Positions 14,826 to 19,582 of a stretch of 25,243 bases of DNA are shown here, piece by piece. The DNA is from an uncultured virus (IMG/VR IMGVR_UViG_2875455138_000005). Its lineage: Duplodnaviria; Heunggongvirae; Uroviricota; Caudoviricetes. The stretch is from positions 62,001 to 87,243 of the IMG/VR virus record IMGVR_UViG_2875455138_000005. One strand, given 5' to 3'. The notes under the pieces were generated by a model. That model made no database searches and was not told the DNA's origin. It was given only the letters and a program-made list of their open reading frames with translations. The translations under genes were made by a program, and so were the position numbers. Each line of letters starts with the position of its first letter. The stretch's first letter is position 1.

Positions 14826-15665
14826 ATGAGTCAATTTGATATGCAGTACAACACAATCATAAATGACATAATTAATAATGGAGTATCTGACGAAGAATTC
14901 GATGTCAGAGCCAACTGGGATACAGATGGAACCCCAGCTAATGCACTCAGTGTAATCAGCAGGAAAATGCGATTTGACAATACTGAAGTACCAATTTTAA
15001 CGACTAAAAAAGTTGCCTGGAAAACAGCAATCAAAGAATTGCTTTGGATATGGCAGCTTAAATCAAATGATGTCAACGAATTAAACAAGATGGGTGTGCA
15101 CATCTGGGATCAATGGAAACAAGAAGATGGTACAATCGGCAAAGCATATGGATATCAGCTTAGTAAAAAGAACAGAGTGCTAAACTGTGAAAAAGTTGAT
15201 CAGGTTGATTATCTTCTTCATCAGTTGAAAAATAATCCATCATCACGCAGACATATTACAATGCTTTGGAATCCTGATGATTTAGACTCAATGGCTTTAC
15301 CACCTTGTGTATATGAGACACAGTGGTATATAAAACAAGGAAAGCTTACCTTAGAGGTAAGAGCTCGTAGCAATGACATGGCTTTAGGGAATCCGTTTAA
15401 TGTGTTCCAGTACAATGTTTTGCAGCGTATGATTGCTCAAGTTACTGGCTATGAGCTAGGTGAATATGTCTTCAATATTGGAGACTGTCACGTATACACT
15501 CGTCATATAGACAATTTGAAAATTCAAATGGAAAGAGAGCAATACGAAGCACCTGAGCTATGGATTAATCCGGATGTAAAAGACTTTTATGATTTCACAA
15601 TTGACGATTTCAAACTGATTAATTATAAGCATGGAGACAAGCTTTACTTTGAGGTAGCAGTATAA
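14826..15665 (+). CDS. thyA: Thymidylate synthase (thyP3/ThyA type)
   Basis: PILTTKKVAWK, ALPPC, RARSNDMALGNPFN, DCHVY; RBS fits ATG at 14826 (279 aa). Confidence 0.97.
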   Translation: MSQFDMQYNTIINDIINNGVSDEEFDVRANWDTDGTPANALSVISRKMRFDNTEVPILTTKKVAWKTAIKELLWIWQLKSNDVNELNKMGVHIWDQWKQEDGTIGKAYGYQLSKKNRVLNCEKVDQVDYLLHQLKNNPSSRRHITMLWNPDDLDSMALPPCVYETQWYIKQGKLTLEVRARSNDMALGNPFNVFQYNVLQRMIAQVTGYELGEYVFNIGDCHVYTRHIDNLKIQMEREQYEAPELWINPDVKDFYDFTIDDFKLINYKHGDKLYFEVAV

Positions 15666-16171
15666 TGCTATCTCTTATTGCTTGCTGCGATAAATCAATG
15701 GCCATTGGGTATGAGAATAATTTGCTTTACCATATTCCTGAAGACATGAAACGTTTTAAAGAACTCACTACAGGAAAGTTGTGTATTCAGGGAAGGCTTA
15801 CATATGAAACGATCGTAAACATTACAGGAAAGCCACTTCAAAACCGAAAGAATATCATACTGACCAAAAATAAGGATTTCAAGCCTGATCACTCTTCATT
15901 CGTTTACCATTCGGTTGACGATGTTTTAAAGCTTATACGTGGTCAATTGGATACAAATGAAGAAGTAATGGTTATTGGAGGAGGCGTTATTTACGAGGCA
16001 TTCTTACCACATGCTGATAAGGTTTATTTGACGATTGTTGATTCAGTTGCTGAGAAGGCAGATTCATATTTTCCAAGGTTAAATGACGATTGGAGAGTAA
16101 TTGAAAAGGATCATAGAAAAGCAGAAAACAATACCACATATAATTATTCATTTGTGACTTACTCAAAATAA
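15665..16171 (+). CDS. dfrA: Dihydrofolate reductase
   Basis: AIGYENNLLYHIPEDMKRFKELT, GRLTYE, PLQNRKNIILT, VIGGG, ADSYFP; coupled to thyA. Confidence 0.95.
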   Translation: MLSLIACCDKSMAIGYENNLLYHIPEDMKRFKELTTGKLCIQGRLTYETIVNITGKPLQNRKNIILTKNKDFKPDHSSFVYHSVDDVLKLIRGQLDTNEEVMVIGGGVIYEAFLPHADKVYLTIVDSVAEKADSYFPRLNDDWRVIEKDHRKAENNTTYNYSFVTYSK

Positions 16172-16225: not shown

Positions 16226-16255
16226 AAAGACAAGTTAAAAGCTTGTCTTTTTTTT
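16226..16255 (+). terminator. Rho-independent terminator after dfrA
   Basis: AAAGACAAG-TTAAAAG-CTTGTCTTT followed by T run. Confidence 0.8.
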
Positions 16256-16300
16256 ACATACTTTTAGAGTGAAAATAAAATAATAAATAGGAGTGGCGAT

Positions 16301-17622: not shown

Positions 17623-17960
17623 TCGATAAATTGACGAAAGATCAACTCGAAGTAATCCGAAAGCGTTCGGAGAAGGCTACGGAAGGCCCGTGGCGAATCG
17701 GGAAGCAATCACCAAACGGATTAAATAATATCGGAACAATTGGCGGATTACTGACTGCACAAACAACGGATGAAGAGGACGCAAATTTCATCGCAAACGC
17801 CCGCCAAGATATTCCGTCGCTACTCGATCACATTACTTTTCTAAACGAAGTAATATCGAGCTGCCGATGCGCTGAGTGTGGCGATGAATTGGGGGAAGAT
17901 TGGGCAACTAACAACGGAGTAGCGTTTTGCAATTACTGTGCTGGACTTAATTCTTTATGA
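17619..17960 (+). CDS. Ead/Ea22-like phage protein with C-terminal zinc ribbon
   Basis: EKATEGPW..DANFIANARQDIPSLLD motif; CAEC...CNYC; AGGAGG RBS. Confidence 0.75.
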   Translation: MIDKLTKDQLEVIRKRSEKATEGPWRIGKQSPNGLNNIGTIGGLLTAQTTDEEDANFIANARQDIPSLLDHITFLNEVISSCRCAECGDELGEDWATNNGVAFCNYCAGLNSL

Positions 17961-17989
17961 AATCTGTATTTTAAAGAGAAGGTGATGCA

Positions 17990-18112
17990 GTGAAAGAGTC
18001 GTTGAAGAATGATTTTCAAGAGTTTGTGAGTATTGCAAAAAGCTTTCTTGCTGTTTCTGGAGCAGTCTTTTGGTTATTGATAATTTCACTTGTTTTTGCT
18101 GGAGGCTATTAA
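17990..18112 (+). CDS. 40-aa single-TM peptide (not in ORF track)
   Basis: AAGGTGA RBS, GTG; MKESLKNDFQEFVSIAKSFLAVSGAVFWLLIISLVFAGGY. Confidence 0.65.
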   Translation: MKESLKNDFQEFVSIAKSFLAVSGAVFWLLIISLVFAGGY

Positions 18113-18113
18113 A

Positions 18114-18302
18114 ATGAATCAATCATATAAATTTAGTCTAGAAAAATTACCAATAGAAAGCTTAGAGAACCTGAAGACAGACATACAAAATAGAATTAAT
18201 GATGGCTTGCGTACTGATAACAACGTATACATAAAAGACCAAAGAAGAAAACTTCAAATCTTTTTAGACGAGCTGGTTAGACGAAGTACACTTGTTCACT
18301 AA
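18114..18302 (+). CDS. Phage hypothetical protein (62 aa)
   Basis: GGAGG RBS fits ATG at 18114. Confidence 0.75.
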   Translation: MNQSYKFSLEKLPIESLENLKTDIQNRINDGLRTDNNVYIKDQRRKLQIFLDELVRRSTLVH

Positions 18303-18316
18303 AGGAGGTGAATACA

Positions 18317-18355
18317 ATGCCAGAAGTACTTTACGGATTTGGAAGAGGAGCGTAA
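18317..18355 (+). CDS. 12-aa micro-ORF MPEVLYGFGRGA ending in an arbitrium-like hexapeptide
   Basis: AAAGGAGGTGA RBS at 18301-18311, ATG, TAA, then a hairpin. Confidence 0.75.
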   Translation: MPEVLYGFGRGA

Positions 18356-18377
18356 AAAAGAGGGGATTAATCCCCTC
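18354..18377 (-). terminator. Terminator of sspC, possibly bidirectional
   Basis: GAGGGGA-TTAA-TCCCCTC with A6 on the left (U6 on the minus strand). Confidence 0.8.
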
Positions 18378-18382
18378 ATAAA

Positions 18383-18595
18383 TTAATGAAATTGACCATT
18401 CATGCTTTGCTGAGCCATGCGAACCAAACGTTTTGTGATTTCTCCACCTACTGAGCCGTTTGCTCGGCTTGTTGTGTCTGCTCCCAGTTGAACACCAAAC
18501 TCAGAAGCAATTTCATACTTCATTTGTTCAAGGGCACCAGCAGCTTGAGGCACAAGTAATTCATTGCTGTTGTTTGATCTGTTTTGTTGAGCCAT
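18383..18595 (-). CDS. sspC: Alpha/beta-type small acid-soluble spore protein
   Basis: [37 protein letters not shown] signature; AGGAG RBS. Confidence 0.95.
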
Positions 18596-18639
18596 ATGAT
18601 CATCTCCTAAAGTAGTATGTAAACAAGTTTGTTCAATTG

Positions 18640-18668
18640 TAGTGTGTGGAGATGATTTGAAAATATAC
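18640..18668 (-). promoter_or_regulatory. SigG-type promoter of sspC
   Basis: Minus strand GTATA-N17-CACACTA. Confidence 0.6.
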
Positions 18669-18696
18669 ACATTAAATTTGAAGTGAGGTGATTTAA

Positions 18697-18720
18697 ATGT
18701 CGATTGGTCATGGAGCATAA
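18697..18720 (+). CDS. 7-aa micro-ORF MSIGHGA (arbitrium-like hexapeptide after Met removal)
   Basis: GAGGTGA RBS at 18685-18691, 5-nt spacer, ATG TCG ATT GGT CAT GGA GCA TAA. Confidence 0.7.
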
Positions 18721-18754
18721 GTTAACACGTACTTAAACAAAGAAGGGGGATAAA

Positions 18755-19582
18755 ATGAAAATCGATTATGTTTCAGATCTGCATATTAATCACTGGATAC
18801 CTTGGAACAATAACCAAATCAAATGGGAAAGGCGAACAAGGGAGATTATTAGAAGGTTGATATCTAATGGAAATGGAGAGGTATTAATCATTGCCGGTGA
18901 CTTTACTGAGTGGAATCAACAGACACTATGGGTACTTGATGAAGTAGCAAAGCAGTATGAAAAGGTCTACTTCACATATGGTAATCATGATCTTTATCTA
19001 CTCAGTAAAAATCAGCAACGAAAATATTCCGATTCTTTGGGAAGGGTGCATGATTTAATTCAGAAGGCAGCAGACATCAATAATGTCACTCCATTAATAA
19101 AGTCTACGGATACATACAAAGGAAAAGCCTTTGCTGGAGATGTCATGTGGTATCTTCCAAAAGGAAATGAAGGATGGGATTTCTTCAAAGGTGTCTCCAA
19201 TGATTCAAACTATATCAGCCTAAATGGATACAACAAAGAAGATGGGGTAAGAGCAATGTGGAAAGAATCAATGGATTGGTATGATACTCTTGAAAACTCT
19301 CACATTGATGTATTTGTCTCACATGTCCCACCTGTTCACAATCCCTGTTCTCCGTTTGAGCCTAACAGCTGCTATATGGTCGATTTGCCATTCATTAATG
19401 CCGAACATTGGATTTGTGGACACGATCATTTACAAGCTGAGTTTTATATAGAAGGAACGAGCTTTCACATGAACTGTATTGGATATCCGTATGACTATGA
19501 TATGTACCCAAGAGTAAATGAGATACCAGGTAATCAAGTTGATACGTATAAAACGTTTGAGCTGAAGACATTTGAAATTTGA
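18755..19582 (+). CDS. yotB: Calcineurin-like metallophosphoesterase
   Basis: SDLH, AGD, GNHD, SHVPP, GHDH motifs; next to sspC as in SPbeta. Confidence 0.9.

Follow-up and report, generated by a model that had tools for sequence, protein, structure and literature searches.

Arbitrium is the model for communication between viruses, and very short coding sequences are familiar in Bacillus as the leader peptides and upstream ORFs of operons, for example the erm and cat leaders. The accessible part of Gallego-del-Sol et al. 2026 (PMC13220667) describes 281 clade-2 AimR receptors that share only 26 proposed mature peptides, with SIGHGA assigned to nine of them, TIGRGG to five and ATIGRG/TIGRG to three (Table S2 of that paper). 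The full-length AimPs listed there end in ...QVA-SIGHGA, ...KVA-TIGRGG and ...KVA-TIGRG and come from B. subtilis, B. velezensis, B. amyloliquefaciens and B. atrophaeus. Signals can also act between phages: the signal of a resident prophage sends a superinfecting phage with which it cross-talks into lysogeny, and the emitter benefits (10.1101/2025.10.13.681967 and PMC13220667, in their accessible parts). The closest leaderless system is SIP/LCP, in which a 24-bp usORF encodes the mature ligand of a RopB-type RRNPP receptor in streptococci and other Firmicutes (available text of PMC10518010).

The window, the whole 25,243-nucleotide stretch of DNA analysed here, forms the final 25 kb of a provirus record of 87 kb that is rated 99% complete, and comes from an SPbeta-like Bacillus phage with 74% identity to SPbeta across sspC-yotB. 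An earlier, sequence-only reading had proposed that a micro-ORF in this window yields a ready-made hexapeptide of the arbitrium type. Our analysis supports and extends that proposal: the predicted hexapeptide, SIGHGA, is the mature peptide of natural AimPs of other phages.

A seven-codon ORF lies between the sspC promoter and yotB

The micro-ORF reads ATG TCG ATT GGT CAT GGA GCA TAA (24 bp including the stop codon), and the features around it are collected in Table 1. Five spacer nucleotides, TTTAA, separate the motif GAGGTGA (18685-18691) from the ATG, exactly the arrangement that the earlier reading had given. The Shine-Dalgarno (SD) consensus is complementary to the 3' end of 16S rRNA, and the translation signals of the micro-ORF are excellent by this measure (an 8-nt SD whose GAGG core lies 8 nt from the ATG), suggesting that it is translated. 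Because an in-frame TAA abuts the start codon, neither an N-terminal leader nor a start farther upstream is possible in the window. Of 18 representative loci, 9 (that of the window among them) have the upstream in-frame stop 0 codons from the ATG, and the A3 allele has a 29-codon open stretch upstream that has no SD and is not hydrophobic (translation read by hand).

Table 1. Features at the micro-ORF locus, in window coordinates.
Feature	Position	Strand	Basis
Micro-ORF MSIGHGA and stop, seven codons, Met + SIGHGA (mature arbitrium peptide of other phages)	18697..18720	+	Sequence, conservation
Micro-ORF Shine-Dalgarno GAGGTGAT	18685..18692	+	8-nt consensus match; GAGG core ends 8 nt before ATG
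In-frame TAA abutting the micro-ORF start	18694..18696	+	Last three bases of the spacer
sspC, alpha/beta-type small acid-soluble spore protein	18383..18598	-	Pfam SASP 7.2e-23
Putative sigma-G-type promoter of sspC	18640..18668	-	Adjoins micro-ORF SD back-to-back; conserved in relatives
Terminator-like hairpin after sspC	18360..18377	-	T-run on minus strand only
yotB ribosome-binding site GAAGGGGGA	18742..18750	+	Sequence
yotB, calcineurin-like metallophosphoesterase	18755..19582	+	Pfam Metallophos 1.1e-17

Seven-codon ORFs are common, 132 of them occurring on the two strands of the 87,243-bp record. An SD match of at least 5 nt precedes 10 of the 132, and one of at least 7 nt precedes the micro-ORF only; among the 383 ORFs of 6-8 codons in the record, it is also the only one whose peptide ends in G-[A/G].

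The position assigned by the earlier reading, between yotB and the sspC promoter, is correct, the putative promoter standing back-to-back with the micro-ORF SD. This promoter candidate has a -10 element CACACTA (18646-18640) and a -35 element GTATA (18668-18664) separated by a 17-nt spacer, as judged against the sigma-G consensus. Homologues of the spore protein gene are annotated as sspC in SPbeta, Goe11 and Goe14. Identity to phi3T, Goe12 and Goe14 is about 90% and limited to sspC and its promoter, with homology stopping at the micro-ORF ATG. The gene that follows the micro-ORF is yotB in the window but not in every carrier. One yotB homologue, 92% identical to the window's at the protein level, lies on a 6.5-kb contig filed under a Streptomyces sp. 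assembly (L161), which also carries the HNH-type upstream gene of Bacillus SPbeta-like phages and is probably a contamination of that assembly.

On the opposite strand, the sspC frame remains open upstream through the promoter and the micro-ORF, forming a 111-aa ORF (18383-18718, minus strand). The phi3T homologue (phi3T_187, L004:1502-1789) is annotated with an N-terminal extension, at 95 aa, across its own promoter, which is probably an annotation artefact. Minus-strand coding of the site was rejected, since the variable sites of the micro-ORF fall on the second positions of that frame.

Micro-ORF peptides match three natural arbitrium signals

The earlier reading had called for a search of AimP C-termini for SIGHGA, and this search was positive: the peptide occurs in the nine of 281 natural clade-2 systems tabulated in PMC13220667 and in full-length AimPs of two viral contigs (...QVASIGHGA) recovered by degenerate-motif scans, which also recovered TIGRGG AimPs in four contigs. 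These SIGHGA and TIGRGG AimPs lie just downstream of AimRs that are 33-34% identical to the window's AimR. Sister alleles of the micro-ORF, read from their sequences, encode two further natural codes, TIGRGG and TIGRG, which the earlier reading had not foreseen. Sequence confirmation covers SIGHGA and TIGRGG, the natural TIGRG being known from the supplement of PMC13220667. Measured against the peptides listed in that source, all three micro-ORF peptides consist of Met plus a natural mature signal, with the ATG exactly at the maturation boundary, and they have the clade-2 C-terminal form (six residues, mostly xxxRGA, with variants ending in GA or GG). Chance identity is negligible, because only 26 natural codes stand against 20^6 possible hexapeptides.

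None of the phage and provirus records examined annotates the micro-ORF. Neither SIGHGA nor TIGRGG appears as a string in any main text of the literature searched, which comprised sources other than subscription journals and bioRxiv supplements, and searches for an orphan, second, truncated or mimic AimP in literature other than subscription journals returned no paper describing the unit.

The unit is a conserved island with a coding signature

Altogether, 22 SPbeta-like phage records (duplicates removed, window included) carry the unit beside the sspC promoter, and three isolated phages have it: Goe11 and BUCT082 with MSIGHGA, and SPbetaL5 with MTIGRG. The micro-ORF is present at 12 of 41 yotB-anchored loci and at 18 of 67 sspC-anchored loci, or 18 of 35 when only those with the SPbeta-type sspC leader are counted. 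The unit is thus missing from about half of the SPbeta-type loci, including those of SPbeta and phi3T. The segment is deleted in SPbeta, the SD is present with no ORF in phi3T, and in Goe14-type phages the homologous SD starts a real gene of 76 aa.

Peptides in the 22 records are MSIGHGA (14), MTIGRG (5) and MTIGRGG (2), the remaining record having a 1-nt deletion. There are nine DNA haplotypes but only three intact peptides, and intermediates such as SIGRGA are absent from the 22 records. The comparison of synonymous with peptide-switching changes that the earlier reading had proposed places the variation on third positions: in codons 2-6, it touches 5 of 5 third positions but only 2 of the 10 first or second positions (Fisher p=0.007, from 15 sites only and in related sequences). 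The two replacements are S/T and H/R, and codon 7 is Ala, Gly or stop. Random stops or frameshifts among homologues, named beforehand as the outcome that would count against a peptide, were mostly not seen; 21 of the 22 records have an intact ORF with synonymous variation, one is frameshifted and one lacks the SD.

Mean pairwise identity across eight representatives is 0.83 in the SD and spacer and 0.85 in the ATG and codons 2-6, compared to 0.66 in the upstream flank and 0.55 in the downstream flank, so that the SD and micro-ORF form a conservation island. This conservation is not due to chance. The unit stays beside the sspC promoter while the next gene changes between yotB and ORFs of 122 aa, 109 aa, 185-193 aa or 70 aa (at least five kinds), at a gap of 10-124 nt. 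With altered units in three of the 22 records, selection is evidently not universal: L135:1140 has a 1-nt deletion that yields MTIGRGDELKPT, L141:1135 has lost the SD, and the spacer of L131:1142 is shorter by 3 nt.

Scanning viral contigs for the window's exact 24 nt returned no match, because relatives use TCA and TGA. With the generic pattern M-xxx-(MRN codon)-G-[A/G]-stop, five matches were found in 10 SPbeta-like genomes, all at the micro-ORF locus, and the reversed-pattern control gave none. No other leaderless arbitrium-like ORF was found in the window's own record or elsewhere in the 10 genomes with this seven-codon pattern, outside which the six-codon alleles fall; leaderless copies of natural codes outside the motif are possible. 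An eight-codon ORF, MDCC[VM][EA]RI, which has an SD-like motif, lies about 1 kb downstream of aimP at eleven loci (L177-L188, L301, L302); we rejected this candidate, which appears to be an out-of-frame artefact inside the 3' end of a protein-coding gene.

These patterns bear on the reading that the peptide has no function, the unit being either what recombination has left of an aimP 3' end or a uORF or ribosome-loading site of a generic kind, acting to stabilise or tune the rightward transcript, with a peptide that was inherited and not selected. Such an origin would fit the end of homology to phi3T, Goe12 and Goe14 at the ATG and the sharing of the SD with the real Goe14 gene, which mark the site as a module junction, as it would the lesions in 3 of 22 records and the lack of the unit in half of related phages. 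It would also fit the 15 of 16 nt shared across the core by allele B1 and the natural TIGRGG aimP. However, that 16-nt core was the sole match in a blastn-short comparison, and natural aimP loci have no flank homology to the unit. Natural SIGHGA aimP genes use AGC ATT GGA/GGG CAC GGT GCG/GCA, whereas the micro-ORF uses TCN ATT GGT/GGC CAT GGA GCA, leaving 11 of 18 nt identical and a different Ser codon family (TCN versus AGC). The lack of flank homology together with the different codon usage indicates that the unit was not copied recently from the 3' end of an aimP, and the lack of flank homology argues against a relic of such an end. Further against an unselected peptide, variation sits on third positions (p=0.007), each of the three alleles equals a living natural code with no intermediates in 22 records, and the start codon falls exactly at the maturation boundary; a role at the RNA or transcript level is disfavoured by the lack of both a conserved RNA structure and an Rfam match and by the changing downstream gene. 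We regard a functionless peptide as quite improbable.

Expression and other readings of the site

No sigma-A-like promoter was found on the plus strand at 18200-19000. The nearest plus-strand candidate, at 16253-16281, is 2.4 kb upstream and could read through to the micro-ORF, promoter counts in such searches not exceeding those in shuffled sequence. An AT-rich promoter pattern scanned over viral contigs gave chance matches only. The interval 17960-19578 is spanned, at about 94% identity, by contigs from the RNA libraries of two studies; these may be DNA carry-over and carry no information on strand, ends or transcription, so that they weigh neither for nor against expression. Farther upstream, a 168-aa ORF (15665-16171, plus strand) resembles dihydrofolate reductase; the corresponding position in Goe14 is annotated as dfrA. 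Behind the ORF, at 16226-16281, come a terminator-like hairpin and the region's best plus-strand match to a sigma-A-like promoter, from which a transcript reaching the micro-ORF could start.

Several other roles for the site were considered. An RNA element was rejected for the lack of an Rfam match at the micro-ORF and of a consensus structure (RNAalifold predicts 0 pairs). An operator of the repeated SPBRE kind was rejected as well, since the 87-kb record has no second copy of the site. Nor does the locus look like a cis-regulatory leader or uORF, having at least five different downstream genes at gaps of 10-124 nt, no RNA structure and no Rfam match.

The peptide differs from the carrier's own signal

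The window's phage has an arbitrium system of its own, with an AimR of 381 aa (PF22871, NF038310) and an AimP of 46 aa (NF033802) at 26402-27708 of the record (L176:503-1809). Its AimP ends in ...SVASIIRGA and gives the mature peptide SIIRGA. Exactly one AimR is present in this 99%-complete record, and the micro-ORF lies 53 kb away, at position 80697. Each carrier record searched has a single AimR locus, and in all carriers AimR is tens of kb from the micro-ORF, which is thus nowhere adjacent to a cognate aimR. The code of the carrier's own AimP differs from the micro-ORF peptide in 21 of 21 readable carriers, the 22nd being a fragment with no AimR. As predicted from these sequences, then, the micro-ORF peptide is not the carrier phage's own code, a result that the earlier reading had not foreseen. 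Seven own codes occur among the carriers (SIIRGA, SAIRGA, SASRGA, GMPRGA, SPSRGA, GFTVGA and GIVRGA), and one allele, MSIGHGA, travels with all seven, ruling out co-variation of the micro-ORF with the carrier's AimP. Three carriers have a disrupted AimR and an intact micro-ORF (L186, in the record of L136; L303/L305, in the record of L209; and L300, in SPbetaL5), the disruptions being internal stop codons or a gene split into two CDSs.

The peptide could still act at home, as a weak cross-talking ligand of the carrier's AimR that imparts a cell-autonomous bias to lysogeny or prophage stability. SIGHGA and the window phage's SIIRGA share 4 of 6 residues, cross-recognition of peptides that differ at one position is documented (accessible part of PMC13220667), and the natural SIGHGA receptor has the carrier receptor's AimR contacts for peptide positions 5 and 6. 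However, it is unlike carrier receptors at N206 and at the P1-P3 contacts (as listed in Table S4 of PMC13220667). The own codes GMPRGA, GFTVGA and GIVRGA share only G5-A6 with the peptide of the MSIGHGA allele that accompanies them, and allele and own code show no co-variation. In Goe11, deletion of the six AimP residues abolishes arbitrium control (PMC13220667, in its accessible part) even though MSIGHGA is present, so the micro-ORF product does not replace the phage's own signal there. Tuning of the carrier's own switch seems quite unlikely to us.

Phages with such codes do meet, as source assemblies that they share indicate. In three cases of four, a natural TIGRGG provirus shares its source assembly with a carrier (L279/L192, L278/L203 and L270/L126), as read from IMG/VR contig-name prefixes and in natural TIGRGG records that are only 20-33% complete. 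The carrier allele in these assemblies is TIGRG twice and SIGHGA once, never the exact TIGRGG. These co-occurrences point to polylysogeny of arbitrium phages with different codes.

Discussion

We judge it somewhat probable that the micro-ORF is a leaderless, receptor-less mini-gene that makes a rival phage's mature signal inside the cell and silences the rival's AimR. The steps from translation through Met removal and receptor binding to an effect on fitness are ones that we infer. The strong SD and ATG would drive translation of the seven codons, with no leader, secretion or processing. Methionine aminopeptidase removes Met when Ser or Thr is at position 2, and by the specificity of the enzymes, deformylase and methionine aminopeptidase should take the fMet off before the Ser or Thr of the micro-ORF peptide; a retained Met or formyl group could prevent AimR binding. 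The free hexapeptide would stay in the cytoplasm and bind the AimR of a SIGHGA-coded phage co-resident in, or entering, the same cell. The rival's aimX would then be switched off and the rival pushed or held in lysogeny, while the carrier's own AimR, with its other code, would be left alone. As a result, the carrier prophage and its host may escape lysis by the rival, or the carrier may monopolise the cell on induction. Counting against this reading are the failure to find a sigma-A-like plus-strand promoter at 18200-19000, the altered units in three of the 22 records, the absence of the unit from about half of the SPbeta-type sspC loci, and the three shared assemblies in which the carrier allele never equals the TIGRGG of its neighbour.

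Jamming of rivals could also be population-wide, if the leaderless peptide left the cell by a non-canonical route and neighbours imported it via Opp. SIP offers a precedent, coming from a 24-bp ORF with no secretion or processing sequences and yet being secreted and re-imported (available text of PMC10518010), and secreted non-cognate arbitrium peptides manipulate other phages (PMC13220667; 10.1101/2025.10.13.681967, in their accessible parts). However, the micro-ORF peptide has no export signal and is hydrophilic, whereas SIP-type peptides are described as hydrophobic in the available text of PMC10518010, and at none of the loci examined is a transporter gene linked to the unit. Broadcast of this kind is in our estimate unlikely.

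Taken as a forged rival signal that acts within the producing cell, the micro-ORF suggests that phages can forge each other's lysis-lysogeny signals. On the broader proposition, that SPbeta-like phages carry a dedicated signal-forgery gene whose alleles follow at least three rival codes as an arms race proceeds, the own code staying private, we are evenly divided. If forgery is borne out, accidental cross-talk has been turned into an evolved weapon by a gene whose only product is the rival's signal; it would be the first communication-jamming weapon between viruses and would rank with the smallest genes known to function. Such a gene would offer part of the reason for the diversification and exchange of arbitrium codes, and would give the AimR branch of the RRNPP family a leaderless way of producing peptide signals. 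It would also mean that selection can act on seven-codon ORFs, a class that annotation pipelines throw away. Three isolated phages that carry the unit (Goe11, BUCT082 and SPbetaL5) make the idea directly testable.

Comparison with known systems

The micro-ORF, very short, preceded by a strong SD and placed directly before the first gene of a transcription unit, resembles the leader peptides of Bacillus operons. Unlike those leaders, it has no conserved attenuator or RNA structure, its downstream gene is not conserved, and its peptide matches a known diffusible signal.

With the canonical AimP of SPbeta-group phages (NF033802), the micro-ORF shares the final six residues (SIGHGA, and TIGRGG or TIGRG in the sister alleles), the presumed target, AimR, and an arbitrium phage as its carrier. 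It differs in having neither the secretion signal nor the cleaved pro-region of AimP (seven codons directly after an in-frame stop, as against about 40-47 codons in the AimPs read), in lying away from aimR (53 kb in the window's record) and in a code other than the carrier's own. AimP depends on secretion, extracellular cleavage and import by Opp, in place of which the micro-ORF product would need Met removal.

Like SIP/LCP, as described in the available text of PMC10518010, the micro-ORF is an ultrasmall gene of 24 bp for a mature peptide, with no leader or processing sites. LCPs in that description are hydrophobic peptides that retain Met, are encoded next to their own receptor and act as a signal for the producer; in contrast, the micro-ORF carrier encodes no cognate receptor, the unit has no adjacent RRNPP receptor gene and one other-code AimR per carrier, and its peptide copies the code of another element.

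The nearest functional parallel is arbitrium cross-talk (PMC13220667; Manley et al. 2025, 10.1101/2025.10.13.681967, in their accessible parts), in which the peptide of one phage represses the AimR of another, favours lysogeny of the receiver and benefits the emitter, effects that we infer for the micro-ORF. In those accounts, cross-talk arises incidentally from the similarity of self codes that full-length AimPs supply, whereas the micro-ORF would be a separate, dedicated gene that copies an exact foreign code while the carrier's own code remains private.
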